A stretch of DNA of 64,000 nucleotides from an uncultured Spirochaetota bacterium (GTDB taxonomy: Bacteria > Spirochaetota > Spirochaetia > SZUA-6 > Fen-1364): positions 288,001 to 352,000 of the forward strand of contig CAVTHO010000008.1 of assembly GCA_963734545.1 (NCBI GenBank), written 5' to 3'. Shown piece by piece: positions 6,807 through 39,314 of the stretch. Below the pieces are notes generated by a model. That model had not been told where the DNA came from. It did no database searches and saw nothing but the letters and a program-made list of their open reading frames with translations. The translations under genes and the position numbers were made by a program. The stretch's first letter is position 1; each line of letters starts with the position of its first letter.

Positions 6807-6879
6807 GGGGAAGGATGATACGGGTCCCTGCGCGCCTTGACAACAACCCCCTGTTTCGGTTTATAGATGCATGCATACC

Positions 6880-8127
6880 ATGAGAAATCCCACAGATGTC
6901 AGGGTCGTCATTACCGGCATGGGCACGATCAACCCGATTGGAAGCAGCGTGCCCCAGTTCTGGGAAAACCTCATCAAGGGCACCTCGGGAGTTCGGCGTA
7001 TCTCGAGCTTCCCGATCAACAACTATTCCGTCCAGATTGCCGGGGAAGTCGATCTGCCGGACCTTGCGCCGTATTTCAAGAACCGGAAGATGACAAGAAG
7101 GCTCGACCGGTTCGTCGTCCTGGCGCACATCGCCGGTGCCCAGGCCATGCGGGATTCGGGCCTGGACGTGGAAAAGGCTCCGCACCGGTACGGCGTGATC
7201 ATCGGAACCGGTGAAGGCGGCGCCGCAACACGCTATATCAACACGAAAAAAATCGTCGAGGATGGGATGCAGGCAGCGTCCCCGTTCTTCGCCATGTGCA
7301 TTCCCAGCACCGCATCGGGATTTTTCGCCATGGAGTGGAACCTCCAGGGCCCGTGTTTCTCCGTGAACTCGGCGTGTGCCACCGGAAATCATGCCATGGG
7401 AGTTTCGGCCTCGCTCATCAGGATGGGAATGGCTGACGCAATCTTTACCGGCGGGGCCGAAGCGGTGATCAACCCCACCGGGCTCGCCGCATTCGGAAAC
7501 ATCATGGCTCTTTCCGAGCGCAACGACTCTCCGGAAACCGCCTCACGTCCATTTGACAAGGACAGGGACGGGTTCGTGTTGAGCGAGGGAGCAGGCGTTC
7601 TCTGCCTGGAAGAGCTGGAGCACGCGAAACGCAGGGGTGCCACGATCTACGCCGAGCTCACCGGGTACGGATTCACCGGAGATGCCTACGATCTAGTGGC
7701 GCCGCACCCCACCTCGCGCGGCTCTGCCCGGGCCATGCAGGACGCGCTGGACAACGCGCACCTGAACCCTGACCAGGTGGACCTGATCAACTGTCACGCC
7801 GCCTCCACCTCGCTGGGGGACCTTGCGGAGAGCAAAGCGATCAGCGCGGTCTTCAAGGATCTCGCTTCGAAAGTTCCGTCCCACAGCACCAAATCCATGA
7901 CCGGCCATCCCCTTGGCGCGGCAAGCGCACTGGAAGCCATCGCCGTTATTCTGGCCATACAGAAGGGCGTGATACATCCGACCATCAATCAGTTCGAGCA
8001 GGACCCGCGGATCGCGCTCAACGTGGTGCGAAAGCCCCTGGAGGCAAAGGTCAATCACGTGGTTTCAAACGGTTTCGGGTTCGGCGGTCAGAACGCGGCG
8101 ATAACGCTCTCGCGCTACACGGGTTGA
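6880..8127 (+). CDS. fabF: Beta-ketoacyl-ACP synthase II
   Basis: RVVITGMG, SACATGNH (catalytic Cys), SRPFDKDRDGF, NCHAAST, KSMTGH, NGFGFGGQN. Alternative start at 6871. Confidence 0.93.
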   Translation: MRNPTDVRVVITGMGTINPIGSSVPQFWENLIKGTSGVRRISSFPINNYSVQIAGEVDLPDLAPYFKNRKMTRRLDRFVVLAHIAGAQAMRDSGLDVEKAPHRYGVIIGTGEGGAATRYINTKKIVEDGMQAASPFFAMCIPSTASGFFAMEWNLQGPCFSVNSACATGNHAMGVSASLIRMGMADAIFTGGAEAVINPTGLAAFGNIMALSERNDSPETASRPFDKDRDGFVLSEGAGVLCLEELEHAKRRGATIYAELTGYGFTGDAYDLVAPHPTSRGSARAMQDALDNAHLNPDQVDLINCHAASTSLGDLAESKAISAVFKDLASKVPSHSTKSMTGHPLGAASALEAIAVILAIQKGVIHPTINQFEQDPRIALNVVRKPLEAKVNHVVSNGFGFGGQNAAITLSRYTG

Positions 8128-9792: not shown

Positions 9793-10314
9793 CTAAGGGA
9801 AGCAGACTTCGCCGATGGCGGTGCAGGCAACCTTGCCGTCCGCGATGACCTGTCCGATCATCGTGGCAAAGTACTCGTCGTACTCCAGCTTCCTGGCAAG
9901 CAGAACGACCTCGCGGCCGGGCAGGACGGGCGCCAGGTAGTACGCGCCCACGATTCGGGTGGCCCGCACATTCATCGGCTGATTCTGAGCCGGGACCGCC
10001 GTGCTGCGGCTGCCCAGGAAATAGTGCAGGCAGAGGCCGAGCTGGCCGATCATCTCCACCTCCAGGCAGCCCGGATATACAGGATAGTCGGGAAAGTGAC
10101 CGGCAAATATCGGATCGTCGGAAGAGATGAAACGCGACCCTGCGATCGCCTCTTCATCGAAGCTGACCCCCGTCAATCGATCCACGAGCAGGAACGGCTC
10201 CCGATGCGGGAGGATGCGCTTGATGTCGTCCCTTCCCCATGCAAGGGACGTGAGACGGTCTATCGGAATGAGCGGCTTCTTTCGATTCTCCCGGAGAAGA
10301 GCGTCGTGGTCCAC
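9793..10314 (-). CDS. fabZ: FabZ-like beta-hydroxyacyl-ACP dehydratase
   Basis: LPHREPFLLVD and FAGHFPDYPVYPGCLEVEMIGQ. GTG start. Confidence 0.88.
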   Translation of the reverse strand: MDHDALLRENRKKPLIPIDRLTSLAWGRDDIKRILPHREPFLLVDRLTGVSFDEEAIAGSRFISSDDPIFAGHFPDYPVYPGCLEVEMIGQLGLCLHYFLGSRSTAVPAQNQPMNVRATRIVGAYYLAPVLPGREVVLLARKLEYDEYFATMIGQVIADGKVACTAIGEVCFP

Positions 10315-10315
10315 T

Positions 10316-11575
10316 CTACGCGCGGAGGCCTTTGGCGATCACGTCCTCGATGATATTGAGGGCCGTGTCCATCTGCTCTTTCGTGAACTGCGTGGACACC
10401 GAGATGCGGAATCTCCGTGAATCCGCCGGCACCGCGGGAAAGTCCACGGGCTGGAGAAACAGCCCGCGCCGCTGTATCTCGTAGGCGAACTGGATGAGCT
10501 TTTCACCCGAGGAGCCGATGATGATCGGTATCACCTGGGATTCGCTCTGACCGAGATTCAGCTTCAGGGCCTGGAGGCCTTTCTTCAGATACGCGACGTT
10601 CTTCCAGAGCAGGTCACGGAGGCTCGAATCACGCGTGGCCACTTCCAGCGCTTTCATCAGCCCCCCTACGACTGGAGGTGAGGGCGCGCAGGAGAAGTTC
10701 CAGGGAGAGGAATATCCCTTGAGGTACTGGATGATGCGGGCGTTGGAACAGATGAACCCGCCCACACCGCCGAAGGACTTGCTGAACGTCCCGAAGCTCA
10801 CGCCGATGTCGTGCTCGAGACCGAAATGCTCGGCCACGCCCCGGCCATTCGGGCCGAACATGAGCGTGGAATGTGCTTCGTCGATATAGGTGGCCGCCTT
10901 GTAGTGGGCGCATACCTTCAGGATTTCCGGCAGCCGTACCAGGTCACCGTCCATTGAATAGACGCCTTCGAAGGCAACCAGCACGCGCTTGCCCTTGCAC
11001 TTCTCCAGCATGGCTTCCAGGGAGACCGGGTCGTTGTGGGAGAAGAACAGCATCTTTGCGCCGGAGAGGGTGCCGCCGTCTATCAGGCTCTTGTGGCACT
11101 TTTCATCAAGGACGAACATGTCCCCCTTGCGCAGGAGCCCCTGGATTGCGCCGACATTCCCGCCCAGCCCGCTGGAAAACAGCAGGCAGTCTTCCTTCTG
11201 CTTGAACTCCGCCAGCTGGCGCGCGAACTTCACGTGCAGGTCGAAAGTGCCGGACAGAAGCGGGGCGCCGGACGCGCCCAGCCCGTAGATATCCAGCGCT
11301 TCCTTTGCCGCCTGGATGACCTCGGGATGCGTGGAGAGCCCGAGGTAGTTGTACGAGGTCATGTTGATGACTTTGCGGCGCTTGCCGTCGAGGCTGCTCA
11401 GGACCTCCGTGCCCGCGCGCGGGGCGGCCAGGAGCTGCTGCCCGAAGAGACCCATGGCGGCCTGGATCTTCGGGTGCTCGATCCACGACTGGAAATCGCT
11501 CGGAGGGGTCAGGACGTCCGGGCTGTCATTGAAGAAAAAGTCCGCCAGGCTGAAGCTGAGGGCCTTGTCAGCCAT
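10316..11575 (-). CDS. PLP-dependent alpha-oxoamine synthase, serine palmitoyltransferase-like
   Basis: SYNYLGL, HKSLIDG, FSHND, EGVYSMDGD, DEAHS, GTFSKSFGGVGGF (PLP Lys). Confidence 0.85.
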   Translation of the reverse strand: MADKALSFSLADFFFNDSPDVLTPPSDFQSWIEHPKIQAAMGLFGQQLLAAPRAGTEVLSSLDGKRRKVINMTSYNYLGLSTHPEVIQAAKEALDIYGLGASGAPLLSGTFDLHVKFARQLAEFKQKEDCLLFSSGLGGNVGAIQGLLRKGDMFVLDEKCHKSLIDGGTLSGAKMLFFSHNDPVSLEAMLEKCKGKRVLVAFEGVYSMDGDLVRLPEILKVCAHYKAATYIDEAHSTLMFGPNGRGVAEHFGLEHDIGVSFGTFSKSFGGVGGFICSNARIIQYLKGYSSPWNFSCAPSPPVVGGLMKALEVATRDSSLRDLLWKNVAYLKKGLQALKLNLGQSESQVIPIIIGSSGEKLIQFAYEIQRRGLFLQPVDFPAVPADSRRFRISVSTQFTKEQMDTALNIIEDVIAKGLRA

Positions 11576-11822
11576 TGCCTTTGTTCACGTATTCGAGGAA
11601 TTTCACCGCCAGCTCGTCGATGTTGTTGATGTCCGTCAGCTCGGAGCGTGGAACCTTGATTTTCAGCTCCCGCATGGACGTGGAAACCACTTCGATCATG
11701 TCCAGGCTGTTTGCGCCATAATCTTTCATGGATTTCTGAGGGTCGATGCTGGCGGCGTCGATATCGTCGCTGTTGGCGGCGATGTTCTTCTTGATCACCT
11801 CGATCACCGCTTCTTTTGTCAT
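11568..11822 (-). CDS. Acyl carrier protein, AcpK-like (GANS motif)
   Basis: 84 aa with MKDYGANSLDMIEVV. Confidence 0.92.
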   Translation of the reverse strand: MTKEAVIEVIKKNIAANSDDIDAASIDPQKSMKDYGANSLDMIEVVSTSMRELKIKVPRSELTDINNIDELAVKFLEYVNKGNG

Positions 11823-11840
11823 TTCGCGCTCCTTATCTTG

Positions 11841-12656
11841 TTAAGTCTCTTTATCTGGGGACCGTTCCGCAAGATACCGGCCCATCGCATTATCCCGAAA
11901 GGGGAGGCCGTAGTCAACGCTGATTATCTGGCCGTTCACGGCGTCCAAAAGCCCGCTGCAGAGGGCCAGGACGGCCTTTCCGCACTCCGCGGGGGTCAAA
12001 ATCATGCTGGAGGGAATACCTTGCGTGGCTATGTACTTGAAGAAATCCTCTCCGAAGATCGCCTTGAAGGAATCCGTGTTCACCGTGCCGAACCGCAGCA
12101 CGTTCACCCGTGATCCCTCGGCCTGAAGAGGCACGGAGAGGTACCGGGAAAAAAACTCCAGAAGTGCCTTCGAAGCCGCCACGAAGTCGTACCCAGGGTA
12201 GAAATGGTCCGGGCCGTCGCTGGAGATGGCGAGGACATACTTCGGATAGCTGCCGAACCTCTCCTTGATCCTGCGGGTATAGTCGATGAGCGGCCAGGTG
12301 CTGTACTCGAGGGTCTTGAAGAGCGACCTCTTCTTGTAGTCCGCCAGCGTGAGGGTGCGCAGCGCGAAGCTCACATTGCTGATGAAGATGTCGATCTTCC
12401 CCGCGACCGACGCGATCTGCTCCATCAGCCGGACGGTATCCTCCTCCTCCGCGGCATCCGCTTCGTAGAACATCGGGCGCAGGGCGCCCCGCGACTCGAA
12501 CTCCGCCGCCACCTTCTCCTGGTCGGCGCTTCCCCACTTGTAGGTCAGGTATACCTGTGCCCCGGCTTCGGCGAGCGAGAGCGCAGATGCGAGTCCGATC
12601 CCCTTGGTTCCCCCCGTAATGAGAGCTGTCTTCCCCCGCAGATCCACGCTGACCAT
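11841..12656 (-). CDS. FabL-like enoyl-ACP reductase (SDR)
   Basis: TGGTKGIG and YPGYDFVAASKALLE (Yx6K pattern of FabI/FabL). Confidence 0.75.
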   Translation of the reverse strand: MVSVDLRGKTALITGGTKGIGLASALSLAEAGAQVYLTYKWGSADQEKVAAEFESRGALRPMFYEADAAEEEDTVRLMEQIASVAGKIDIFISNVSFALRTLTLADYKKRSLFKTLEYSTWPLIDYTRRIKERFGSYPKYVLAISSDGPDHFYPGYDFVAASKALLEFFSRYLSVPLQAEGSRVNVLRFGTVNTDSFKAIFGEDFFKYIATQGIPSSMILTPAECGKAVLALCSGLLDAVNGQIISVDYGLPFRDNAMGRYLAERSPDKET

Positions 12657-12673
12657 GACTGCCGCCTTCTTTC

Positions 12674-13423
12674 CTATTCGGGGTAGAGCTCGTTGATCGT
12701 GCGGCGGGTTTCCGGGAAGGAAAAACTGATCCGGTGCATCAAGTCTTCCTGGAGCCGCGCATCCACCAGGAGCTTCTTTTTCTTCGCGCTCAGGGTGTGC
12801 TTCAGCAGGGATATGGATCGGGCATCCTTCTCCGCGATCTGCTCGGCCAAGTCCCGGGCCCGGGCCAGGACCTCGCTCCTCGGCAGGATGTAGTTGATAT
12901 GGGTGCCTCTGCCCTCGAGCTCGCTGCCCCGGAAGCGCTTGCCGGTGAACATCATCTCGTTTGCAAGAAAGGGACCGACGAGCTCCGCCAGCAGGGTCGT
13001 GGTGCCCATGCCGGGGGTGAAGCCGAGGCTCATGAATACCGCCCCGTACCGGCTTTCTCTGGCCGCGATCACAATGTCGCAGCAGAACCCGACCGCGAGT
13101 CCCCCTCCTATGGCGTGACCCTCCATCGCGGCGATCACCGGAAAGGGCATCTCGAGAAGCCGCTCGCAGATCACGAAATCCTTGACCGCCGCCTTGCCGT
13201 CGCACAGATCGATCAGCTCCTTCTTGTGCGCGCCGCCGCAGAAGACATCCGGGAGGCCGGAGAGAACGAGGACCTTGGGCCGGCGTTCCTGTTCCAGCTC
13301 TTCCAGTGCCTCGAGGAGCTCCGCGATGAACTCCGAAGAGAAAATATTGCGGCCCCTGGTGTCATTCATCTTCAACCAGGAGACTCCGGAGGGCTCGGAG
13401 GTCAGCTTCATCCGTTCGCTCAT
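12674..13423 (-). CDS. Enoyl-CoA hydratase-family decarboxylase ECH2 (PksI-like)
   Basis: MEGHAIGGG, FMSLGFTPGMGTT, EMMFTG, EDLMHRISF. Confidence 0.88.
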   Translation of the reverse strand: MSERMKLTSEPSGVSWLKMNDTRGRNIFSSEFIAELLEALEELEQERRPKVLVLSGLPDVFCGGAHKKELIDLCDGKAAVKDFVICERLLEMPFPVIAAMEGHAIGGGLAVGFCCDIVIAARESRYGAVFMSLGFTPGMGTTTLLAELVGPFLANEMMFTGKRFRGSELEGRGTHINYILPRSEVLARARDLAEQIAEKDARSISLLKHTLSAKKKKLLVDARLQEDLMHRISFSFPETRRTINELYPE

Positions 13424-14262
13424 GGCGCACCCGCCTTCCCTTCCCGCGCGCTCGAAAGGGCAAGAGAACGCGACGGCCTGAACCGGGAGAACCAGGCCGG
13501 CACGTGCCCCTCCTGGAATGCCTTCACACCGTCCAGGGTGGGTGGATCGTGCATCATCTCCACCAATCTGCGGCGCGCGAGCAGGCTGCCCTGCTTCGGC
13601 GTCTTGCCGATCAGCTCCGCGGTAAACTCCTTGACAGCGGCAAGCGCGCGGGGGGACGAGCACAGGAGGCGCTTGAAGATCTCGCGCACGCGGCGCTCGA
13701 TATCCGCGCCGGCCACCAGCTCGTCCACGAGATTCAGACGCAGCGCTTCGGAGGCGGAGATCCGGTGCGAGCTCATCACGAGGTAGCGCGCCGTCTGCGG
13801 CGTCACGCGCAGCGCGAGCATGTAGGGCAGCACGTTCGCGGGTATCAGCCCGAAAATCACCTCCCCCAGCTCGAATGTGGCCCGCTCCCCGGCCACCACG
13901 ATGTCGCACGCGCACGCCAGACCGACCCCGCCGGCCTTCACCTCACCCTCGACAAGGCAGACAACCGGCAGTGCCGCGGAGAATATCGTCTCCAGCACGC
14001 CGGCGTAGCTGTCCACCGCCTTCTCCGCATCCGCCCGGGCCGCGGACCCGTGCGCCGCCAGCAGCGCAAGGTCCATGCCCAGGCAGAAGACAGGCCCGTT
14101 GGAGCGCAGGAGAACGGCGCGCACGCGCGGGTCCTTCAGGGAGCGATCCAGCGCGGCTCTCAGCTCCCGCAGGCCTTCGGGGCTCAGGAGGTTGCCGTGC
14201 TCTCCGTCATTCAGGGTGATCACCGCGACGTGGGAGTCCTCGTACTGCTCGATCAGCGCCAC
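13420..14262 (-). CDS. Enoyl-CoA hydratase-family dehydratase ECH1 (PksH-like)
   Basis: VFCLGMDL, VKAGGVGLACACDIV, FELGEVIFGLIPA. GTG start inferred. Confidence 0.85.
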   Translation of the reverse strand: MALIEQYEDSHVAVITLNDGEHGNLLSPEGLRELRAALDRSLKDPRVRAVLLRSNGPVFCLGMDLALLAAHGSAARADAEKAVDSYAGVLETIFSAALPVVCLVEGEVKAGGVGLACACDIVVAGERATFELGEVIFGLIPANVLPYMLALRVTPQTARYLVMSSHRISASEALRLNLVDELVAGADIERRVREIFKRLLCSSPRALAAVKEFTAELIGKTPKQGSLLARRRLVEMMHDPPTLDGVKAFQEGHVPAWFSRFRPSRSLALSSAREGKAGAP

Positions 14263-15497
14263 CGGCTGAGCTCCACTCGTAGGAGCGGTAGAAATCCTTG
14301 ACCTGACGAAGCACGAGGCGCTTCCTGCCCCGGTAGTGCCGGTCATACCAGCCCTCCGGGCAGGGATAAATCGGGCGTGAAGCAGGGCTGCTCAATGGCC
14401 TCCTCCCGCATTTTCTCGATGGTCTCGTACTCCGCCACGCTCACCTCGCGGCGGGCATCCAGCTCGGCGTCGATGCCCATGCCGGCAACTACCTCCCGGG
14501 CCTCGGGACACAGAAATCCGCTGTAGAACTCGCCGATTGCCCCGGAGCCGTAGGAAAAAAAGCTGATACGGTCTCCGGCCTTCACGCCCTGCGCGCTCAT
14601 TGCGATCCCGCATATGCCGAGGAAGTTGCTCGCCCCATAGGTGGAGCCGCATCGGCGGGCATACAGGAGCGAGGGTTGGGTCTTCTGCGTGAAGCTTTCC
14701 CGTATCTCGATCTTGGTGCGCGCCCGGGCCAGGTTGCAGAGGGTCCGGTGCGCCTGGAATGCCATGCCGGGAAAGGGAGTGTGGTAGCAGTTCTGGGCAA
14801 AGTAGCTGTCGAAATCCACCGTCTCCCCGGTCGTTTCCACATAATCCCGATAGGACCCTTCCAGGGCATCGAGATACGTGTACAGGCTCACCTCGTTGTT
14901 GCCCATCTCGTGCCGTGCACTGGGCCGGAATGTATCGTAGACATCGGAGGTCCACGTGCCTCTCTTGGACAGCTCGTACTCCACCACCCTTGGTGAGTCG
15001 CTCACGAGAGCGGCCGCGGCCACGCCGCCGAGGACGAACTCTTCCTTCGCGTTCAGGTGCATGCGGGAAAAGTCGGTCGAGATGACCAGCGCTTTCCGCC
15101 CCCGATTCAGCCCGGAGGCGATCCAGTTGAGCGCCGTGTCCAGGGCCGCCACGCCGCTGTAGCAGGCGTGTTTCGTCTCGAAGTTCCGCACGTTGGCGGG
15201 CAGACCCAGCGCGCCGTGCATGTTGGTGCTGATGGGTTTGCCGAAATCAACCGAGCTCTCGGTTCCGACCACGAGCATGCCGATGGCCTGCCTGTCCTCC
15301 CCCTCCAGCATCGGGGCGGCCGCGTTGACCCCCATGGTCACGGTGTCCTCGTAGAGGGGATTCAGGGAGCGTGTGTCGATCAGGAAATCCGCAACCACTT
15401 TCTGCGGGTCCATGCCCCTGGCCTCGGCCAGCTTCTTCTGGTCCAGTATCAGGGAGCTGCCGTAGATGTTGATCTTTTCGATGCCGATGCGGCGCAT
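14207..15497 (-). CDS. HMG-CoA synthase-like beta-branching enzyme (PksG-like), +1 indel near 14355
   Basis: IGIEKINIY, VGTESSVDFGKP, FETKHACYSG, YHTPF, FSYGSG. The C-terminal RLVLRQVKDFYRSYEWS lies in the adjacent frame, so the exact stop is uncertain. Confidence 0.9.
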
Positions 15498-15505
15498 ATT
15501 ACTCC

Positions 15506-16261
15506 TTATGGCGCGTAGCTCAGTCCGCCGGCCACCCGGATCACCTCGCCGTTGATGAATCCGGCTTCCGCGCCCGCGAGGTAGTGCACAAGGCTGGCAA
15601 TCTCCTCCGCGGTGCCGATCCGCTTGATCGGACAGTATTCCAGCCAGATCTCGTGCAGCTTTGTGGCCATATGCTGGTCCGTCATGTCCGTTTCCACGTA
15701 GCCGACGGTGACGATATTGGACGTGATGCCTCGGGGGCCGTATTCTCGCGCGAGGGTCTTGGTGAGCCCGATGAGCCCGGCCTTGGCCGCGGCATAATTG
15801 ACCTGGCCGCTGGAGCCCTCCTGCGCGAGAGAGGAGATATTGATGATACGGCCCCAGCGTTTGCTCATGAGGTGAGTGAGAAAGCTGCGGATCACGAAAA
15901 ACGGGCCGGAGAGATCGGCGGCGATCACTTCCTGCCACTGTTCGTCGCTCATCATCGCGGCCGTGTTGTTTCTGACGATGCCGGCATTGTTCACCACGAT
16001 GCCCAGGCTCGGAAAATCCTCCATCACCTGGTCCGCCACCCTCTCCACCTCGGCGCTGTCCGTGACATTCATCCGGTAGGCTTTCAGCGCTGCCGCGCCC
16101 TCCAGCCCGGCAGCCAGGGTCTGTGTCTCCCGCATGGCCGCCTCGTTGCCGACATACGTGAACGCGGTCGGGATGCCCTCCTTGACCAGGCGCAGAACTA
16201 TGGCGCGCCCTATGCCGCGGGAACCGCCCGTCACGAAAGCTGCCGGTAAACCTGGTTCCAT
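15506..16261 (-). CDS. fabG: 3-oxoacyl-ACP reductase
   Basis: TGGSRGIG, NNAGI, INISS, GQVNYAAAK. Confidence 0.88.
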   Translation of the reverse strand: MEPGLPAAFVTGGSRGIGRAIVLRLVKEGIPTAFTYVGNEAAMRETQTLAAGLEGAAALKAYRMNVTDSAEVERVADQVMEDFPSLGIVVNNAGIVRNNTAAMMSDEQWQEVIAADLSGPFFVIRSFLTHLMSKRWGRIINISSLAQEGSSGQVNYAAAKAGLIGLTKTLAREYGPRGITSNIVTVGYVETDMTDQHMATKLHEIWLEYCPIKRIGTAEEIASLVHYLAGAEAGFINGEVIRVAGGLSYAP

Positions 16262-16264
16262 TCC

Positions 16265-17548
16265 CTACCCCTCGTAGCGCCTGATCAGGCTGCAGGCGTT
16301 GATGCCGCCGAACCCGAAGGAGTTTTTCAACATGTAGCGGACCTTGTGCTCCACGGGGCCCCTGGCGCAGACATCGAGGTCCACTTCCGGGTCCAGGCGG
16401 TCGATGTTGATCGTGGGATGGAGGCGGCCGTGCTTCATCTGGAGGAGCCCGGCAATGGTCTCCACGATGGGGGATGCCCAGCAGGTGTGTCCCAGCATCG
16501 ACTTGGCGGCGTTGAGCTTCATCCGGTACGCGTGCGCGCCGAATGCTTCCTTGATGGCCCTGATCTCTTCAAGGTCCCCGCCCGGCGTGCCCGTGGCGTG
16601 ACAGCTCGCGAAATCGACTTCCGAGGGGTCTGTCCCGGTGGACACCAGCAGCTCGCGGATCAGGCGTGCCTGGATTCCAGCAGCAGGCGCGGGCAGGTGA
16701 CAGGCGTTGGCATTGGCCCTTACGCCCATCACTTCCCCATGAATTCGGGCGCCGCGGCTCAACGCGTGCCCCAGCTCTTCCAGCATCAGCGTCCCGGCCC
16801 CGTGCGAGTAGACGAACCCGGCCCGGTCGGCGTCGAACGGCCGCGAAGCCTTTTCCGGGTGATCCTGGAATTCCGGCTTTACAACGACAGCATTGATGAT
16901 CACGGAGGCCTGGATGTCACCGGGGGACATATCGAAAAGCCCGCCGGCAATCACCGCCAGGTCGGACTCCCCGCTCATGATGTCGCGGAAGCCCTCCCGG
17001 AGGGCGAGGTTGCCGCTCGCGCAGGCCCCGCCGATGGTGAAGGTGGGGCCATGCAGTCCCAGGAGCTCCGTGATGACGGCAGGCACGTTCGGATCGATAC
17101 CCTCGACCCCGCTGAGGGGATCCAGGTACTCCACGTCCTGAAGGAAGCGCTTGGAATTCTCGTGGATGTAGTTCGAGTTCAGGTTATGTCCGCCCACGAT
17201 GACGCTGGTGCGGAATGGATCGGTCTCCGAGGCGAAGAGCCCGGCATCCTGCCAGGCAGCGAGAGTGCAGAGAACGGCCATTTTCGCTGAAAAGGTCGTG
17301 GAACGGAACATCTTCTTTGCCTTTTTGAAGGTGTCCGCACCCAAAGCGTCCTTGAAACGTTCCAGGGCCCCCAGGCAGTCGTAATCGCCCAGGTCACCCC
17401 CGATTTTGCACTCTATATTGGTCATATCGAGGCTCTGCCAGCGGCGGATCCCCGATTTCCCGCTTATCAGGTTCTGATAATAGCCCTCCAGCGTATCACC
17501 GAGCGGGTTGATGGTCCCCATGCCGGTGATAACGGCGCGACGTTTCAT
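16265..17548 (-). CDS. Stand-alone beta-ketoacyl synthase, PksF-like but with active-site Cys
   Basis: RAVITGMG, IVGGHNL, TIGGACASGN, SRPFDADRAGFVY, CHATGT, KSMLGH, NSFGFGGIN. GGGGAGG ribosome-binding site. Confidence 0.88.
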   Translation of the reverse strand: MKRRAVITGMGTINPLGDTLEGYYQNLISGKSGIRRWQSLDMTNIECKIGGDLGDYDCLGALERFKDALGADTFKKAKKMFRSTTFSAKMAVLCTLAAWQDAGLFASETDPFRTSVIVGGHNLNSNYIHENSKRFLQDVEYLDPLSGVEGIDPNVPAVITELLGLHGPTFTIGGACASGNLALREGFRDIMSGESDLAVIAGGLFDMSPGDIQASVIINAVVVKPEFQDHPEKASRPFDADRAGFVYSHGAGTLMLEELGHALSRGARIHGEVMGVRANANACHLPAPAAGIQARLIRELLVSTGTDPSEVDFASCHATGTPGGDLEEIRAIKEAFGAHAYRMKLNAAKSMLGHTCWASPIVETIAGLLQMKHGRLHPTINIDRLDPEVDLDVCARGPVEHKVRYMLKNSFGFGGINACSLIRRYEG

Positions 17549-17701: not shown

Positions 17702-18675
17702 TCAATAGCTGCCTCGGGCCCCGATGCGCGCCGCGAAAGCCTGAATTTCGTCACTTCTGCCCGAAAAAGCGCAAAGAGAGGTCTTCCAGACAACGCGTCT
17801 CTTGCCGGTCGGGCCCAGCGGCGGCGAACAGCAGGAAAACTCGATGCTGTCAGGCACGCCGCCGGTTCGGCAATCCACCCGGGCGTCATCCCTGCCCTCC
17901 TCCCTCGCAAAATCCTTGACCAGGAGCTGTGCGCGCCCGGACTCACGCTCCTCGAGGCAGAGGATCCGGTTTCCCGCATCCGCGCCCGGGATTTCGATCT
18001 TCGCGGACTGGGGACCCCGCAATCGTACTACCGCGCAGTCTTCGGCGAATTCGAGGCTGCGGGAGGGCAGGGTCACGAGGCTCGTCTCCGTCCACCGTTT
18101 GCGGAGAGGCACGCGAATCTCCGCCCCCATGCGCGCCTGGGTGATGTTCCAGAGCCACACGGGCGCGCGGCAATCGCCCGAGATCTCGAGGACCGTCTCC
18201 TCCTCATACCCGGCCTGGCGCAGCCAGGTCGTGCCCCAGAGGTCGGCCAGCCGCGCCTCTGTCATCGGCCTCACCCGGCGGATGAGCCTGAACCGGATCC
18301 GGGACCCCGTCTTCCAGGCCAGCGCCTCGCCCTTGTTCTCCATGGCATATCCGGATTTCTCGGATGAGCGGGCAAACTGGCCCGGGTCGATGGCGGGGGG
18401 GACCTCGGGGCCTTCGGCGAGGAACTCCTCTTCCGGAGCCAGCCACATCCGGTCCCCCCCGGGTTGATCCAGCCGTCGTCCTTTGATCCGATGTGCAGAA
18501 GACGCAGAAATCCGGGATTCACCCAGAGCGCGTTGTCACCCCGCCAATGGGGCCACACCCCGAGCACGCGCCCGTACTCGGGCAGCACGAGCACGGCGCC
18601 GTCCGCGCCCGATTCGAGGACCGCGTACTCGACGCCGAGGGTCTTCAGGCTGACAACGGTCTCTTCGAGTCCCAT
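17702..18675 (-). CDS. Conserved hypothetical protein (DUF6786-like), frameshifted in a G7 run near 18455
   Basis: Two overlapping ORFs join as ...YGRVLG...GWINPGG/DRMWLAPE if one G is added. Confidence 0.6.
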
Positions 18676-21281: not shown

Positions 21282-24269
21282 GTGAAAAAGAAAAAAGCCG
21301 TTGTCACCACTCTTCGCCAGGCTCTGTCCTACGAACCGGTGGAGCTCGCGTTTGGAACCAGCGGATTGCGCGGGCGGGTGAGTGACATCACCAGCCTGGA
21401 GGCGTACGTGAACACCAGGGGGTTTCTCACGCGGCTTCTCGAGACGGGTGATATCGCCCGGGGGAACACGGTGTTCGTTTCCGGTGATCTGCGGCCGAGC
21501 ACCGACACGCTCGTGGCGGAAGAGGGCTCGCGCGGAGAAATTCTCCAGGCCGTGTGCCGGGCCATCGCGGATTCGGATCTCGCGGCAGGCTACGTGGGCA
21601 GGGTCCCCACGCCCGCTCTCGTGCTCCACGCCATGAAACGCGGGGCCGCGTGCGTCATGGTGACCGGAAGCCACATCCCCTTCGACAGGAACGGCATCAA
21701 GCTCAACAAGCCCTCGGGGGAGCTGCGGAAGCATGACGAAGCCCCGATCCTCGCCGCGGTGAAGAAGGTACGCGACGAAGAATACGCCCGCCCGCTGGAC
21801 GAGAGCCTCTTCGATGAGCAGGGCATGCTGCGCGAGCAGGGCGCGCTTCCGGAACAAGCCACCGGGGCCGCGGAAGAGTACGCGCAGCGCTACACCGCAG
21901 CCTTCCCGCGGGGCGTCCTGGCGGGCAGGAAAATCCTCGTGTGGCAGCACTCCGCGGTGGGCCGGGACCTCGTGGTGAAGATACTGGCAGACCTTGGCGC
22001 CGAGCCGGTTCCCGCCGGGAGGAGCGACTCGTTCATGGCCGTGGACACCGAGGCGGTGAACGACCAGATGGTGCAGGACATCCAGGCGCTCGTGGATGCG
22101 CACGGGAGTGCCTCGATCGCCGCGGTCGTATCGACCGACGGTGACAGTGACCGGCCGCTCGTCCTGTCGGTGGACAACGGCAGGGTGCGCTTCTTTCCCG
22201 GCGACCTGCTCGGCCTGGTTGCCGCGGACTACCTGGGCGCCGGTCATATCGCGGTCCCCGTCAGCGTGAGCGATGCGATCGATCTGCACCTCGGGCCCCG
22301 GCATGTGGTCACGGTCCGGACAAAGATCGGCTCACCCCATGTCATCGCTGCCATGAAGGAAGTCGGCTGGGAGGGAAACGGCGGATTTCTCACGGCGGCC
22401 CCCGTGCGCATTCCGGAAGGCGGCGTGCTGGAGCCGCTTCCCACACGCGACGCGATGCTTCCCATTCTCGCGGCCCTGTACGCCTCCCTCGGCCGCGGAA
22501 AAAGCCTGGGTGCGCTCCTCGATTCTCTTCCCAGGCGGTTCGGAAAGACCGCGCTCGTGCGCGACTTTCCCATGGACGCGGGAAAGGAGATCGTGACGTG
22601 GCTTTCTCCCACCGATCCCTCTGTCCTCGAAGCGCGCTTTGCCTCCGCGGGAATCAGCGTGAAGACGCAGGAGGGCGAGGAGCGCGGGCTCGCAGCGGGA
22701 GATCCGCTGGCGGAAGAGCTCGCCGGAATACGCAGCCGGCTGCAGAGGTACTTTTCCCCGGACGGATTTGGCGAAGTGACCTGGATCAACTGGCGTGACG
22801 GCGTGCGCGTCGGGTTCGACAACGACGAGGTGGCGCATGTGCGGCCGTCGGGCAACGCGCCTGAAATGCGCTTCTACGCCATCGCGGACACCGAGGAACG
22901 GGCGAGCTCCATTTCGACGGGTGCCGTTGGTGAGGACGGGCTCCTGCATCGCATGAGGCAGGACTCCAGCGAGCGCAGCGCCATTGCCGGCATCCGTGTG
23001 TCCCCCCGGGCGCTCACCCTCCGCCCTGCCGTCCAGCATTACGAGTGGGGAGGGTACGAGTTCATTCCCGGCCTGCTGGGCGTGCAGAACACGGAGCGCC
23101 GTCCGTTCGCAGAGCTGTGGATGGGGACCCATCCGCGCGGGCCCGCGCGGGCGGAGATCGACGGAACCCTCCTCTCGCTGGACAGGCTGATTGCCGCCGA
23201 GCCATGGCAGATCCTCGGCACCGATGTCGCGCTTCGTTTTGCGGGCCGGCTGCCCTACCTTTTCAAGGTGCTCGACGTGCGGATCATGGCGTCTCTCCAG
23301 GCGCATCCGTCCAAGGGCCAGGCGGCAGAGGGCTTTGCGCGGGAGAACGCGGCCGGCATACCCCTGGACTCCCCCGAGCGAAACTACAGGGATGAAAACC
23401 ACAAGCCCGAGGTGCACGTGGTCCTCACGGATTTCTGGATGCTGCACGGATTCCGGCCCCTGGAGGAGATCTCCGAGGCGCTCACCGCGGAACCCGAGCT
23501 CAGCGGCATCATGCCGAGCTTCGACGAAAAGCTGAGCGCATCCCACGGGGACCCGGCAGGCAGATCGGCGCTCCTGCGCGAGCTCTACGCGCGGGTGATG
23601 ACAATGGCGCAGGCAGAGGTGGATGCGATCCTGACACCGCTCATTGCCCGGCTGGAGGCGGCGGAGAACCAGGGGGCACTGCGCAGGAACAGCCACGGGT
23701 TCTGGGCCCTGCGGGCCGCGCGGACATTTCCGCTGCCCGGAGGCCACGGTGACCGGGGGATCATTTCCATGTACCTGCTCAATCTGCTGGAGCTGAAGCC
23801 GGGGCAGGGCAGCTACCAGCCCGCCGGCACGCTCCACGCCTACCTGGAAGGCGCGGACGTGGAGCTCATGGCCAGCTCCGACAATGTGCTTCGGGGCGGT
23901 CTGACCCCCAAGTACGTGGACGTTCCCGAGCTCCTGGCCACTCTCTCGTTCACTGACGGCCGCCCGCCGATCCTCGAGGGACGCGCCGCATCCGAGACGG
24001 GACGCGAATACGAAACCCCGGCAGAGGAGTTTGCGCTGGAGAGGATCGAGATCTCCCCGGGCACGCCCTATTCGGGCGGAAGGGACCACAGCGCGGATTG
24101 TCTCATCGTGATCGAAGGCGCGGCGGCGGTGATCGCGGGCGGGCGCACGGTCATGCTCCCCCGCGGCGGGGCGGCAATGGTGCCAGCCGCTCTTCCCTAC
24201 TCGATCGCGGCCCGGTCCCCGCGCGCGGTCCTCTTCAAGGCGGGTGTGCCACTCCGCGAGGGTGCGTAA
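21282..24269 (+). CDS. Phosphomannomutase fused to class I mannose-6-phosphate isomerase
   Basis: N-half: FGTSGLRG, TGSHIP, STDGDSDRP, VRPSGNAPE. C-half: QHYEWG, AELWMGTHP, LFKVL, SLQAHP, NYRDENHKPE, HAYLEG, SDNVLRGGLT. Confidence 0.92.
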   Translation: MKKKKAVVTTLRQALSYEPVELAFGTSGLRGRVSDITSLEAYVNTRGFLTRLLETGDIARGNTVFVSGDLRPSTDTLVAEEGSRGEILQAVCRAIADSDLAAGYVGRVPTPALVLHAMKRGAACVMVTGSHIPFDRNGIKLNKPSGELRKHDEAPILAAVKKVRDEEYARPLDESLFDEQGMLREQGALPEQATGAAEEYAQRYTAAFPRGVLAGRKILVWQHSAVGRDLVVKILADLGAEPVPAGRSDSFMAVDTEAVNDQMVQDIQALVDAHGSASIAAVVSTDGDSDRPLVLSVDNGRVRFFPGDLLGLVAADYLGAGHIAVPVSVSDAIDLHLGPRHVVTVRTKIGSPHVIAAMKEVGWEGNGGFLTAAPVRIPEGGVLEPLPTRDAMLPILAALYASLGRGKSLGALLDSLPRRFGKTALVRDFPMDAGKEIVTWLSPTDPSVLEARFASAGISVKTQEGEERGLAAGDPLAEELAGIRSRLQRYFSPDGFGEVTWINWRDGVRVGFDNDEVAHVRPSGNAPEMRFYAIADTEERASSISTGAVGEDGLLHRMRQDSSERSAIAGIRVSPRALTLRPAVQHYEWGGYEFIPGLLGVQNTERRPFAELWMGTHPRGPARAEIDGTLLSLDRLIAAEPWQILGTDVALRFAGRLPYLFKVLDVRIMASLQAHPSKGQAAEGFARENAAGIPLDSPERNYRDENHKPEVHVVLTDFWMLHGFRPLEEISEALTAEPELSGIMPSFDEKLSASHGDPAGRSALLRELYARVMTMAQAEVDAILTPLIARLEAAENQGALRRNSHGFWALRAARTFPLPGGHGDRGIISMYLLNLLELKPGQGSYQPAGTLHAYLEGADVELMASSDNVLRGGLTPKYVDVPELLATLSFTDGRPPILEGRAASETGREYETPAEEFALERIEISPGTPYSGGRDHSADCLIVIEGAAAVIAGGRTVMLPRGGAAMVPAALPYSIAARSPRAVLFKAGVPLREGA

Positions 24270-36589: not shown

Positions 36590-37375
36590 TCAGTCCACCT
36601 GCGCACCGGCAGTCACGTTGGCCACCGTTGCGGTCATAGCCCGGGCAAAGTCGGAAGCCAGCAGGACCACTGCATCCGCGACCTCGGCGAGGCTGGAAAG
36701 ATGCCGGAGGGGCGTCCCTGAACCGGCTCTGCGTTCGAACTCCTCGAGCGTGATCCCCTGCGCCGCCGCATGGATTTGGAACACTTCCCTCAGGCCGGGC
36801 GAGTCGGGCGAGCCCGGTGAGCGCACACAGCATGCCCGCACGCCGAACGGTCCGTTTTCCACCGCGAGATGACGGATGAAGTGCTCGATTGCCCCTGAGG
36901 CCACGCCGAATCCGCCCACGTTGCCGTACGCCTCCCGGGCCGCGTTTGCCGATATTCCGATGATGACCCCGCCCCCGTTTGCCGCCATGTGGCGCGCGAC
37001 GGCTGTCCCTGTGGTGAACCAGGTCTGCATGGCCTTGAGTATCGGCTCGATGAAGCGCGTGCGGTCGAGCTCCGTGAGCGGTATGCCCTGGGTGTCTTCA
37101 AGACCGACGGAATTGAACATGATCTTCACCGGCCCTGCACTCGCGACGATGCGTTCCAGGTGCGCGGCGACGGCTGCTTCGTCCACGGCATCTACGGGGG
37201 CGACATGCGATATGCCGCCTGAGCTGCTGATGGCCGCAGCCACCCTTTCAAGCGGCTCGCGCGTTCGGCCTGAGAGAAACACCCGGGCGCCCTGCCCGGC
37301 AAGCGCCTTTGCCACGGCGCCGCCAACGGCGCCTCCCGCGCCATACACGATGGCATTCCTGTCCTTCAGCAGCAT
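36590..37375 (-). CDS. Atypical SDR oxidoreductase
   Basis: AIVYGAGGAVG Rossmann motif, no canonical YxxxK. Confidence 0.85.
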   Translation of the reverse strand: MLLKDRNAIVYGAGGAVGGAVAKALAGQGARVFLSGRTREPLERVAAAISSSGGISHVAPVDAVDEAAVAAHLERIVASAGPVKIMFNSVGLEDTQGIPLTELDRTRFIEPILKAMQTWFTTGTAVARHMAANGGGVIIGISANAAREAYGNVGGFGVASGAIEHFIRHLAVENGPFGVRACCVRSPGSPDSPGLREVFQIHAAAQGITLEEFERRAGSGTPLRHLSSLAEVADAVVLLASDFARAMTATVANVTAGAQVD

Positions 37376-37454
37376 CTCATACCTCTCCTCGGTCAGAATG
37401 GCGTCCCTAATATAACGGCACGGGAACGATGAGTGAGAGTGCGGCTGCGACAAT

Positions 37455-38051: not shown

Positions 38052-38204
38052 ACTTGTTGTAGAAAATGGGCAGGATGCGGGCAAAGGTCAAGCATGGATT
38101 TCCACGAAAGGACTGGCGTCTTACGCGAAGCTCGGTGATGTGGTAGCGTTCGTCTTGAGAGGTTGGTGGCATCCATTCATGTTGCTCAAGAAAAGGAGCA
38201 TTCT

Positions 38205-39314
38205 ATGGCAGTCACTGTTGAGAAAGTCATAACGAAAAGGCAGATACGGGAGTTCATAAGGTTTCCGTATGCTTTGTACAAGAATGACCACAATTGGGTC
38301 CCCCCGCTGCTGATGGATGACTACCGAAAGATCAACCGAAGGAAGCATCCCTTCTACCAGCATGCAGAAGCAGAGTTTTTCCTTGCCCGCAAGGACGGAG
38401 CGGCTGCAGGCCGGATAGCGGCTATCCATGACACGATCTGGGAGCAGACACACAAGGAAAAGGCAGCGTACTGGGGGTGGTTCGAGTGCAGGGAAGACCA
38501 TGCAGTGGCACAACAGCTCTTCGACGCAGCTTTGGACTGGGCGCGCGGGAGGGGCTGCACGCGCATCATCGGTCCCATGTCGCCGAATGCAAACGACTAC
38601 ATCGGCTGTCAGATCGAGGGTTTCGAAGGATCGCCCGTCCTGTTCATGACCTACAACCCGGCATACTATGACCGGCTCATCCAGGGCTGCGGAAACCGCA
38701 AATGGAAGGATCTCGTCGCATGGCTGGTCGGACAGGATGCACCCGAGCGGCTGGCAAGGATCATGCCGCGCGTCGAGGCAAAGGGCGGATTTACCCTGAG
38801 AACGGTGAACATGAAGGACTTCAGGGGCGAGCTTGAGCGTTTCAATGACCTGTATAACCAGTTCGAGCAGGTGAACGCTGTTTTCACTCCCATGACGCCG
38901 GCGGAGGTCGACCTCATTGCCAAGGACCTGAAGATGGCGATCGACCCTGAGCTTGTCTTTTTTGCCGAAGTGGACGGGAAGCCGGTCGGAGTATCGCTGT
39001 CCGTTCCAGACTTCAACGTGGCCTTCAAGGCGGCTTATGGTCGCCTCTTCCCCTTCGGTCTTTTCCGTCTTCTTGCTGCGCGGAAGCGGATCCCCATCAT
39101 TCGGACGATCAGCATGGGGGTTCTCCAGGACTACCGGAATCGTGGTATCGACCTGTCCTTCTACTACAACACGTTTGTCAATGGAAAGCGGAAAGGATAC
39201 AAGGGGGCCGAATTGTCCTGGGTGGAAGAAGACAACGTGGCAATGACCAATACTGCGACAAAGATCGGCGCCACTCCGTATCGCAAATACAGGGTCTACG
39301 AGCAGGCACTCTAG
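38205..39314 (+). CDS. YghO-like GNAT, the family of bacterial ceramide synthase bCerS
   Basis: FIRFPYALY..D.NWVPPL, FFLA, GRIAA, GWFEC, IIGP, YNPAYY, ELSWVEEDN, YRKYRVY. AAGGAG ribosome-binding site. Confidence 0.8.
   Translation: MAVTVEKVITKRQIREFIRFPYALYKNDHNWVPPLLMDDYRKINRRKHPFYQHAEAEFFLARKDGAAAGRIAAIHDTIWEQTHKEKAAYWGWFECREDHAVAQQLFDAALDWARGRGCTRIIGPMSPNANDYIGCQIEGFEGSPVLFMTYNPAYYDRLIQGCGNRKWKDLVAWLVGQDAPERLARIMPRVEAKGGFTLRTVNMKDFRGELERFNDLYNQFEQVNAVFTPMTPAEVDLIAKDLKMAIDPELVFFAEVDGKPVGVSLSVPDFNVAFKAAYGRLFPFGLFRLLAARKRIPIIRTISMGVLQDYRNRGIDLSFYYNTFVNGKRKGYKGAELSWVEEDNVAMTNTATKIGATPYRKYRVYEQAL

Follow-up and report, generated by a model that had tools for sequence, protein, structure and literature searches.

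An operon of β-branching enzymes, fatty-acid synthase components and an α-oxoamine synthase, shared by Spirochaetota and Myxococcota, points to an undescribed route to branched amino-lipids

Gene organisation of the locus

This report concerns a group of nine genes from an uncultured bacterium of the phylum Spirochaetota. The genes lie in a stretch of 64,000 nucleotides, here termed the window (positions 288,001 to 352,000 of contig CAVTHO010000008.1, assembly GCA_963734545.1), and encode relatives of the enzymes of a polyketide-type β-branching cassette, the discrete components of a fatty-acid synthase (FAS) and a member of the α-oxoamine synthase (AONS) family. An initial annotation had described nine tightly coupled genes at this position, and such they are: nine open reading frames (ORFs) run in the same direction on the minus strand between 9793 and 17548, separated by gaps of 3, 8, 17, 18 and 1 nt or overlapping by 4, 4 and 8 nt. 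Start codons were assigned from purine-rich ribosome-binding sites upstream; a list of longest ORFs makes several of the genes too long. The end coordinate given in the initial annotation, 17548, is also the preferred start of the first gene (ATG, with GGGGAGG upstream). In order of transcription, the genes are:

16265..17548, minus strand: β-ketoacyl-acyl carrier protein (ACP) synthase (KS), 427 aa, PF00109/PF02801
15506..16261, minus strand: FabG-type 3-oxoacyl-ACP reductase, 251 aa, PF13561/PF00106, with Y-x3-K in the translation
14343..15497, minus strand: 3-hydroxy-3-methylglutaryl (HMG) synthase (HMGS), 384 aa, PF01154/PF08540, predicted to be a second, specialised copy
13420..14346, minus strand: ECH1, crotonase-fold dehydratase, 308 aa (280 aa if translation begins at the GTG at 14262), PF00378
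12674..13423, minus strand: ECH2, crotonase-fold decarboxylase of the PksI/CurF type, 249 aa, NF005496
11841..12656, minus strand: enoyl-ACP reductase (ER) of the FabI/FabL type, 271 aa, PF13561 (adh_short_C2), with Y-x6-K as YDFVAASK
11568..11822, minus strand: dedicated ACP, 84 aa, PF00550
10316..11575, minus strand: AONS, a pyridoxal phosphate (PLP) enzyme of a cluster-specific subfamily, 419 aa, PF00155
9793..10314, minus strand: FabZ-like 3-hydroxyacyl-ACP dehydratase, 173 aa, PF07977

The overlap of 8 nt is that between the stop codon of the ACP gene and the start codon of the AONS gene, which is translationally coupled to it. A scan for promoters and terminators was uninformative: the number of promoter-like sites (one) was no higher than expected (1.5), and nothing after FabZ made a convincing terminator. 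None of the listed sequencing runs that match the stretch is an RNA run.

Conservation of the operon in two phyla

HMGS was used to scan 185,579 species genomes; of the 97 relatives that this gave, the best 80 were kept, and their loci were labelled by tblastn with the window proteins. Counts of loci refer to the 46 in which HMGS is flanked by 5.5 kb or more in either direction; the other 34 of the 80 were too short and were left out. Most relatives are metagenome-assembled genomes (MAGs) of Spirochaetota, with HMGS identities of 95-60%, and a few are labelled as Brevinematales, FCPU426, Aminicenantes or 'delta proteobacterium'. A further group belongs to Myxococcota (Nannocystaceae, Polyangia), where HMGS identity is 45-50%. 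Among the carriers are the cultured strains Enhygromyxa salina SWB005, Plesiocystis pacifica SIR-1 and Nannocystis punicea FL3, and also Nannocystis sp. RBIL2.

All nine genes are present at 36 of the 46 loci, and the gene order is thus conserved far beyond chance. The initial annotation had named gene order as a check on the grouping, and this order is strongly kept over two phyla. The spirochaete-type loci share the order of the window, KS-FabG-HMGS-ECH1-ECH2-ER-ACP-AONS-FabZ. The myxobacterial order is a permutation of it, AONS-AT-FabZ-KS-FabG-HMGS-ECH1-ECH2-ER-ER-ACP, in which AT denotes a FabD-like malonyl transferase and which ends in ER-ACP-ER at four loci. Of the 39 full-context loci with the ER-ACP part, 36 also have AONS.

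The exceptions number 10 of 46 and comprise six reduced spirochaete loci, three myxobacterial loci and one cassette from Acidobacteria (L073). The reduced set consists of KS-FabG-HMGS-ECH1-ECH2 in L040, of HMGS-ECH1-ECH2 in L050 and of HMGS-ECH1 in L052-L055; none of the six has an ACP, ER or AONS gene nearby. The spirochaetes with reduced sets include Candidatus Haliotispira prima, and several have chromosomes of about 1-3 Mb that are closed or nearly so. At two MAG loci (L037 and L051) the genes that are apparently missing are present in frameshifted pieces. Both loci contain many frameshifts, and their identity to the window jumps from gene to gene between 46 and 98%, which suggests long-read errors or chimeric assembly.

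With ECH2 as the marker, the cut-off is passed in 31 of the 401 genomes sampled from the phylum, including the organism's own. A much larger number of weaker matches falls in family f20, where 73 of 75 genomes score about 160 bits. Of the matches below the cut-off, three were checked (L085 and L086 in f20, L088 in another family) and rejected, each being a lone crotonase with no cluster around it; only matches above the cut-off were therefore counted. Wetland metagenome runs list DNA near-identical to part of the stretch, with shares of 0.20-0.43.

Family relationships of the core enzymes

Family membership was judged from Pfam, from NCBIfam models with their curated cut-offs and from bit scores against solved structures in PDB. 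Among the nine core genes, ECH2 alone passes an NCBIfam curated cut-off, scoring 269.7 bits with NF005496 (cut-off 215). Its nearest solved structures are PksI (153.5 bits) and CurF (136.4 bits), ordinary hydratases giving 103.5 bits or less.

HMGS scores 267.7 bits with TIGR01835 (cut-off 360.35) and is nearest to the structures of CurD (232.9 bits), 8s81 (230.6), 5hwq (222.3) and PksG (217.7). We take 5hwq to be the HMGS of the alternative isovaleryl-CoA (AIB) pathway of Myxococcus, the entry itself giving only the name of the molecule. The genome has another HMGS, to which the cluster enzyme is 31% identical. It is found at C6:130966-136286 (locus L082), together with an FMN enzyme resembling type-2 IDI, two GHMP kinases and a diphosphomevalonate decarboxylase, in what is a mevalonate-pathway island. 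This second gene was considered as part of the system and rejected on account of these mevalonate kinase, decarboxylase and IDI-type neighbours. As the other copy has its place among mevalonate-pathway genes and is so distant in sequence, the cluster HMGS appears to be a specialised one.

ECH1 is less distinctive. It scores 146.7 bits with the generic crotonase model NF005675 and, slightly lower, 142.4 bits with NF005498, the model bearing on dehydratases of the PksH type (cut-off 250), both under the cut-off. The solved structures that come nearest to it, at about 100 bits, belong to generic or isohexenylglutaconyl-CoA hydratases. It looks like a hydratase of the methylglutaconyl or isohexenylglutaconyl type. 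The KS matches a model of polyketide β-ketoacyl:ACP synthases (NF005490, 308.5 bits, cut-off 445) slightly better than FabF (293.4 bits), again with both scores under the cut-off. The β-branching cassettes of polyketide synthases (PKSs) are described as using a condensation-inactive KS, termed KS0, which does no more than decarboxylate malonyl-ACP. Since the Cys-His-His triad is retained in the window KS, as it is in 12 of 12 cluster KS sequences aligned, this enzyme should be able to condense, unlike the KS0 of those cassettes.

The remaining FAS-type proteins match the expected families below the curated cut-offs: FabG scores 240.3 bits with TIGR01830 (cut-off 297.75), ER 103.5 bits with FabL, its best NCBIfam match (cut-off 328), FabZ 81.5 bits with NF000582 (cut-off 113) and the ACP 54.7 bits with NF005502 (cut-off 79). 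In ER, the Y-x6-K spacing is that of FabI/FabL enoyl reductases. The cluster has a single type of ACP, with an Asn-Ser attachment motif. Its core, KSMKD.GANSLD.IEVVS.SMREL, is kept from spirochaetes to Nannocystaceae, and identity over the two phyla ranges from 51 to 100%.

The α-oxoamine synthase

AONS reaches no NCBIfam cut-off. The best scores are with TIGR01825, a subfamily related to BioF and Kbl (332.7 bits), followed by bioF (322.9), the serine palmitoyltransferase (SPT) model SPT-CFB (311.5) and KBL (302.9). The nearest solved structure is the SPT of Sphingobacterium multivorum (257.1 bits); further structures score less, among them Thermus BioF/KBL (222), Kbl (211), 5-aminolevulinate synthase (ALAS, 208), Sphingomonas SPT (199) and E. 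coli BioF (161 bits). The equivalents of the S. multivorum SPT residues His138, Asp210, His213 and Lys244, which handle PLP, are conserved in 50 of 50 cluster AONS sequences; an offset of +1 in this numbering was deduced from the position of the Lys. All 50 also have Ser-Tyr-Asn-Tyr where the S. multivorum enzyme has Ser-Asn-Ser-Tyr.

In a quick tree, the 50 cluster-linked sequences form a single group that excludes two other AONS paralogues of the organism's own genome. Within this group, the sequences from spirochaete-type loci make up one clade (SH-aLRT 100), and the division follows that between the two sets of hosts. The branches of the two paralogues are very long and only the grouping was used. 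Since the cluster sequences form a clade of their own, AONS appears to have been inherited together with the operon.

The genome has at least three additional AONS paralogues. At G000:C8:846661-853437 (L081) a second AONS is followed by a lipid kinase resembling diacylglycerol kinase, an AIR-synthase-related protein, a KS, a protein of 171 aa with no known family and a radical-SAM/SPASM enzyme. These genes form a further unusual cluster of the amino-lipid type. A third paralogue, at G000:C9:168766-171900 (L084), is directly followed by an AMP-binding enzyme of 677 aa, an arrangement like that of Spt and AasR. A further AONS at C7:898021-898953 is spread over several frames and is possibly a pseudogene.

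Absence of a modular polyketide synthase

The genome of the organism amounts to 5.14 Mb in 10 contigs and is 89% complete. When it was searched with PF00109, KS matches appeared in four frames, 428-539 aa long; the window accounts for two of them. In five cluster-bearing relatives, including two closed single-contig genomes that are 99% complete, there were 23 matches, all in frames of 356-451 aa. This search of KS frames thus found no modular or trans-AT PKS in the organism's own genome or in the five relatives, in agreement with the initial annotation, which had seen none. A neighbour of 2309 aa at the reduced locus L050 was considered as a PKS and rejected, as it is a Glug/cadherin surface protein. 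Because all KS frames are discrete in these six genomes, the cassette would operate in the absence of a modular PKS.

Genes that accompany the core

The initial annotation had also placed a phosphopantetheinyl transferase, a second FabF and an AT3 acyltransferase next to the nine genes. All three are present. With a more distant acyltransferase, they are:

6871..8127, plus strand: FabF2, a second KS, 418 aa, convergent with the operon, TIGR03150 and NF005589
6078..6806, minus strand: 4'-phosphopantetheinyl transferase (PPTase) of the Sfp/HetI type, 242 aa, PF01648/PF22624
8347..9612, plus strand: AT3-family membrane acyltransferase, with weak MdoC/NolL-like matches
38163..39314, plus strand: tandem-GNAT acyltransferase, 383 aa, PF00583 (33.2 bits), a paralogue of the GNc9 protein of the relatives

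FabF2 scores 484.9 bits with TIGR03150 (cut-off 493.75) and passes the subfamily model NF005589 with 469.9 bits (cut-off 387); it is 35% identical to the cluster KS. The PPTase gives 133 bits with the HetI model, under the cut-off. In the two groups of full-context loci, the accompanying genes occur as follows:

FabF2: 24/32 spirochaete-type loci, 0/13 myxobacterial loci
PPTase (two types): 22/32 spirochaete-type, 0/13 myxobacterial
FabD-like malonyl transferase (AT): 10/32 spirochaete-type, 13/13 myxobacterial
Tandem GNAT 'GNc9', about 380 aa: 11/32 spirochaete-type, 7/13 myxobacterial
Second ER copy: none seen at spirochaete-type loci, present at myxobacterial loci (ER in 13/13)
AT3 acyltransferase: 1/32 spirochaete-type, 0/13 myxobacterial

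The PPTase and FabF2 are therefore conserved companions and the AT3 gene is not. As it is found at only one of 32 spirochaete-type loci, the AT3 gene is probably a lineage-specific insertion between FabF2 and FabZ, outside the pathway, and it is not supported as a member of the cluster. The only FabD found in the organism's own genome is the housekeeping copy on contig C5.

Two of the accompanying proteins bear on what becomes of the AONS product. The tandem GNAT gave no match in NCBIfam and PDB sequence searches and is annotated in the Atlas as 'GNAT' only. A fold model built from 21 sequences (pLDDT 87.2, pTM 0.86) matches MAB_4324, glucosamine N-acetyltransferase and mycothiol synthase with E values of 2.5e-15 to 4e-11, so that the predicted structure resembles those of tandem-repeat GNAT enzymes that N-acylate amines. 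The second protein is an extended short-chain dehydrogenase/reductase (SDR) of the NAD-dependent epimerase/3β-HSD family, the gene for which adjoins the cluster at 17 loci in both phyla and is often directly beside the GNAT gene (L075, L046, L035). Among named families it comes closest to HpnA, to OleD (a keto-reductase of lipids) and to a sterol enzyme, in each case under the cut-off. The fullest spirochaete form of the cluster, in the closed genome G332 (L087), reads GNAT-AT-KS-FabG-HMGS-ECH1-ECH2-ER-ACP-AONS-FabZ, followed by FabF2, the PPTase and an LpxO-like hydroxylase. Other lipid enzymes are found at single loci, namely a CDP-alcohol phosphatidyltransferase, a membrane protein of the LPG_synthase_TM type and FabH. 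Proteins with GGDEF signalling domains adjoin the cluster in the window, in L004 and in L047, and no sensor gene is conserved with the cluster among the loci compared.

The tandem-GNAT paralogue of the window is, by tblastn, 41% identical to the GNc9 protein of L018 and 38% identical to that of L072. It is unlinked to the operon, lying some 20 kb away, and is a possible partner in the pathway judging by this similarity. It is grouped with an SDR (287 aa) and a small GNAT (209 aa) at 36590-39314, and the genome has about six tandem-GNAT paralogues in total.

Some other features of the window may be recorded here. Upstream of the KS, a frame termed X248 (17702-18448, minus strand) belongs to no Pfam family and is restricted to the closest relatives. 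Over the region 17702-18675 (minus strand), the match to a protein of 324 aa from L004 is split, with residues 1-74 at 18675-18454 and the remainder (71-324) at 18466-17705, which suggests a frameshift or an assembly error near 18454-18466. Further away, a frame of 995 aa (21282-24269, plus strand) combines phosphoglucomutase/phosphomannomutase domains (residues 23-419) with a type I phosphomannose isomerase (residues 579-970) and may be a fused bifunctional sugar-phosphate enzyme.

A proposed pathway

The operon is, as far as its gene content can tell, a union of PKS-type branching enzymes, a private fatty-acid synthase and a condensing enzyme of the sphingolipid type, and it points to an undescribed route to branched amino-lipids. 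On balance it seems probable that these genes encode a self-contained, ACP-bound system in which malonyl units are built into a methyl-branched acyl-ACP and AONS condenses the latter to a sphingoid-like lipid. What the sequences show directly are the enzyme families with their active-site motifs, the arrangement of the genes, their joint inheritance and the lack of a PKS in the genomes searched; the chemical steps, the position of the branch and the amino acid we infer.

In this scheme, malonyl groups would be loaded onto the dedicated ACP by the housekeeping FabD in the window organism and by the FabD-like AT of the cluster in most relatives. The KS would decarboxylate malonyl-ACP to acetyl-ACP and condense this with malonyl-ACP, giving a β-ketoacyl-ACP, most simply acetoacetyl-ACP. 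HMGS would then add an acetate unit to form an HMG-type thioester (HMG-ACP), and dehydration by ECH1 and decarboxylation by ECH2 would lead to a β-methyl enoyl-ACP (3-methylcrotonyl-ACP), which the FabI/FabL-type reductase could convert to isovaleryl-ACP. The chain would be elongated on the same ACP by the KS, FabF2, FabG, FabZ and ER. Finally, AONS would carry out the decarboxylative condensation of the methyl-branched acyl-ACP with an amino acid, releasing a 2-amino-3-keto lipid. In the relatives, the tandem GNAT may N-acylate this product and the extended SDR may reduce its ketone, to give a ceramide-like, N-acylated 3-hydroxy membrane lipid.

The branch is probably of the iso- type, and a single branch introduced at the C4 stage is favoured, since an unprogrammed iterative system can most easily select its substrate by chain length and since reduced HMGS-ECH sets occur without the remaining machinery. 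Sets reduced to HMGS-ECH1 or HMGS-ECH1-ECH2 would fit an action on a small, universal β-keto thioester.

The initial annotation had likewise read the cluster as a source of branched amino-lipids formed by an SPT-like enzyme. The results that it had named as contrary to this reading, namely a PKS elsewhere in the genome, a gene order that is not conserved and an equivalent cluster already characterised, did not turn up in the genomes and the literature searched, and the reading gains further support from the tandem GNAT and extended SDR genes beside the cluster in relatives. Two reservations attach to it: the use of serine is unproven, and the KS, with its Cys-His-His triad, is not a KS0 of the PksF type.

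Evidence for and against the proposal

A number of observations weigh against the pathway as drawn. A pathway that needed nothing beyond isovaleryl-ACP would have no use for FabG and FabZ, yet even the reduced set of L040 retains FabG. Three of the 13 full-context myxobacterial loci (L056, L057 and L070) have the full FAS/HMGS core with no AONS nearby, from which it follows that the acyl-ACP can have other fates. Apart from ECH2 and the FabF2 subfamily model, every family score is under its curated cut-off, and the product is a prediction from gene content. The ACP lacks the Trp flag after its Ser, at the position where we take this flag to lie; the flag is described as predictive, though not absolutely so. 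None of the AT, GNAT and SDR genes adjoins the cluster in the lineage to which the window belongs (L001-L012). LpxC was not found in the organism's own genome, which is 89% complete, and it is absent from three of five carriers and present in two of five; the presence of the cluster does not follow the loss of LpxC in these genomes, and a connection with the loss of lipopolysaccharide is not supported.

Further reservations concern AONS. It falls short of all three SPT models, scoring 311.5 bits with SPT-CFB (cut-off 640), 276.6 with SPT-beta (500) and 230.1 with SPT-alpha (670). In addition, two substrate-site positions differ from SPT in all 50 cluster sequences: Asn52, which in the S. multivorum enzyme reaches the serine hydroxyl via water, is replaced by Tyr, and Ser81-Arg is replaced by Ala-Pro or Ser-Pro (Ala-Pro in the window), the preceding Gly80 being kept. 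Since AONS lies outside the SPT models and differs at these residues, serine may be the wrong substrate; the changes are nevertheless compatible with serine, as the contacts in SPT are mediated by water. That the substrate is a serine-like amino acid is, on sequence grounds, unproven.

These differences bear on a rival explanation, in which AONS acts on a branched acyl-ACP of C5-C10 and the product is a small diffusible molecule, such as a branched α-amino- or α-hydroxy-ketone signal like CAI-1 or LAI-1, or a pyrazine or pyrrole formed from a short branched amino-ketone. AONS enzymes are known to make quorum signals as well, and besides the substrate site that is unlike that of SPT, GGDEF proteins lie beside the cluster at three loci and the fold relatives of the tandem GNAT are mostly acetyltransferases of small amines. 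The CqsA-type model does match AONS, at 177.7 bits, but against a cut-off of 428 and as the ninth of eleven models. Moreover, a full set of KS, ketoreductase (KR), dehydratase (DH) and ER with a second KS or ER implies several rounds of elongation, no conserved sensor gene was found with the cluster, and the neighbours at single loci (CDP-alcohol phosphatidyltransferase, LPG_synthase_TM, LpxO-like hydroxylase, FabH) are lipid enzymes. A diffusible product therefore seems rather unlikely. It is unlikely too, and a little more so, that the conserved core mainly provides a leucine-independent supply of iso-branched, isovaleryl-primed acyl-ACP for fatty-acid and lipid synthesis at large, as an ACP-bound counterpart of the myxobacterial AIB pathway, with AONS as one consumer among several. 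Such a role would account for the three myxobacterial loci that read AT-FabZ-KS-FabG-HMGS-ECH1-ECH2-ER-ACP-ER, for the reduced HMGS-ECH sets that stand alone and for an HMGS that scores nearly as well against 5hwq (222 bits) as against CurD. It sits poorly with the location of AONS inside the operon, coupled to the ACP in the window, with its presence at 36 of 39 loci that have the ER-ACP part and with its descent as a dedicated clade that splits with the host groups; the private ACP and PPTase suggest insulation from the housekeeping FAS. We would give about the same small weight to a variant in which the HMGS cassette acts repeatedly, or at a defined later round, within an iterative type II synthase. 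With cycles of branching and of reduction in alternation, chains with several methyl branches, resembling isoprenoids, would then be made from malonyl units only and turned by AONS into pseudo-isoprenoid sphingoid bases. These could be bulk outer-membrane lipids of environmental spirochaetes, several of which lack LpxC, and the duplicated KS of spirochaetes and the duplicated ER of Nannocystaceae would represent two programmes.

Two more conventional explanations have much less in their favour. An ordinary β-branching cassette serving a modular (trans-AT) PKS encoded elsewhere would fit the fact that HMGS, ECH2, ACP and KS are nearest to models of PKS cassettes; the genome is 89% complete, and Nannocystaceae genomes are rich in PKS genes. 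Against this, the KS frames are all discrete, four in the organism's own genome and 23 in five relatives, the KS appears competent in condensation where the cassettes are defined by a KS0, and the cassette is embedded among KR, DH, ER and AONS genes at every full locus. We regard this explanation as very improbable. Still less credible is the idea that AONS is a housekeeping BioF, of biotin synthesis, or Kbl, of threonine catabolism, which has come to lie beside fatty-acid genes by chance. The corresponding models do give 322.9 and 302.9 bits, but both scores are under the cut-offs, no class of solved AONS structures is further away than BioF of the E. coli type (about 160 bits), AONS has been co-inherited with the cluster in two phyla, and the three or more further paralogues of the genome are available for such roles. 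Nor was biotin synthase found in this 89%-complete genome, the best match being 30.6 bits against a cut-off of 225, and for this reason the BioF reading was rejected. The organism may be a biotin auxotroph, and it may lack lipid A.

Comparison with known systems

HMGS-based β-branching cassettes have been described as accessories of modular PKSs. Those of Bacillus pksX (AcpK/PksC/PksF/PksG/PksH/PksI), curacin (CurB-F) and virginiamycin (VirC-E) share with the operon HMGS, a putative ECH1 dehydratase, ECH2, a small ACP and a KS that are both separate proteins and, in the relatives, a malonyl-loading AT. Unlike them, the operon has neither a modular PKS nor an acceptor ACP domain and makes do with one type of ACP, its KS keeps the Cys-His-His triad that marks it off from KS0, and the cassette is joined to KR, DH, ER and AONS. 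To judge from the encoded proteins, it thus fails two features by which such cassettes are defined, the KS0 and the PKS-borne acceptor ACP.

Bacterial ceramide synthesis is reported to require Spt, a special ACP, an N-acyltransferase and a reductase, often encoded in clusters. It is described as starting from ready-made fatty acids, which an acyl-ACP synthetase loads onto the special ACP. The pathway of Caulobacter and other Rhodobacteria (Spt, AcpR, AasR, bCerS and CerR) resembles the operon in coupling an AONS to a dedicated ACP, and the GNAT and NAD(P) SDR of the relatives may, to judge by gene context, be counterparts of its N-acyltransferase bCerS and its reductase CerR. In the operon, the place of AasR is taken by de novo KS, KR, DH and ER enzymes and the branching cassette. 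No AasR-like AMP-binding gene is seen in the cluster or its flanks, although one adjoins another AONS paralogue (on C9). The operon differs further in an AONS that is outside the curated SPT models, with Tyr for Asn52, and in the window's lineage the GNAT and SDR genes are not adjacent.

Another parallel, in chemical logic, is the myxobacterial AIB pathway, which consists of MvaS, LiuC, AibA/B and AibC. There, too, a C5 iso-unit is derived from acetate by way of an HMG thioester, dehydration, decarboxylation and reduction, and ECH1 of the operon resembles the methylglutaconyl-type hydratases. The AIB pathway is CoA-bound, whereas the chemistry of the operon is presumably ACP-bound; in addition, the decarboxylase of the operon is the crotonase-fold ECH2, its reductase is an SDR of the FabI/FabL type, and it is linked to chain elongation and AONS. 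A possible precedent for an HMGS cassette that acts on carrier proteins of the discrete (type II) kind is fogacin of Actinoplanes missouriensis, which, going by the title of a reference, is reportedly made by a type II PKS with β-alkylation genes. As compared with an aromatic PKS of this kind, with its KS and chain-length factor (CLF), the operon has no CLF, has the full set of reduction enzymes and is off-loaded by AONS. Type II FAS provides the counterparts of its discrete KS, KR, DH, ER and ACP, the equivalog cut-offs not being reached.

The initial annotation knew of no characterised equivalent, and a full-text search of the literature found none in which an HMGS cassette is combined with either an AONS or a type II FAS. 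Such a cluster is likewise unmentioned in the texts of a study on conserved myxobacterial biosynthetic gene clusters, one on marine myxobacterial genomes and one on environmental sphingolipid producers.

Significance

If the proposal is correct, the operon would represent a third, ACP-bound way of introducing methyl branches into lipids, beside the use of primers from branched amino acids and methylation by S-adenosylmethionine. It would also provide a de novo, pathway-private source of the sphingoid chain. The operon is widespread, its carriers including soil spirochaetes and marine myxobacteria, and it is directly testable because it is present in cultured Nannocystaceae. Its discrete, portable enzymes are on offer for the engineering of branched lipids, and it could explain the orphan branched amino-lipids of soils and sediments.

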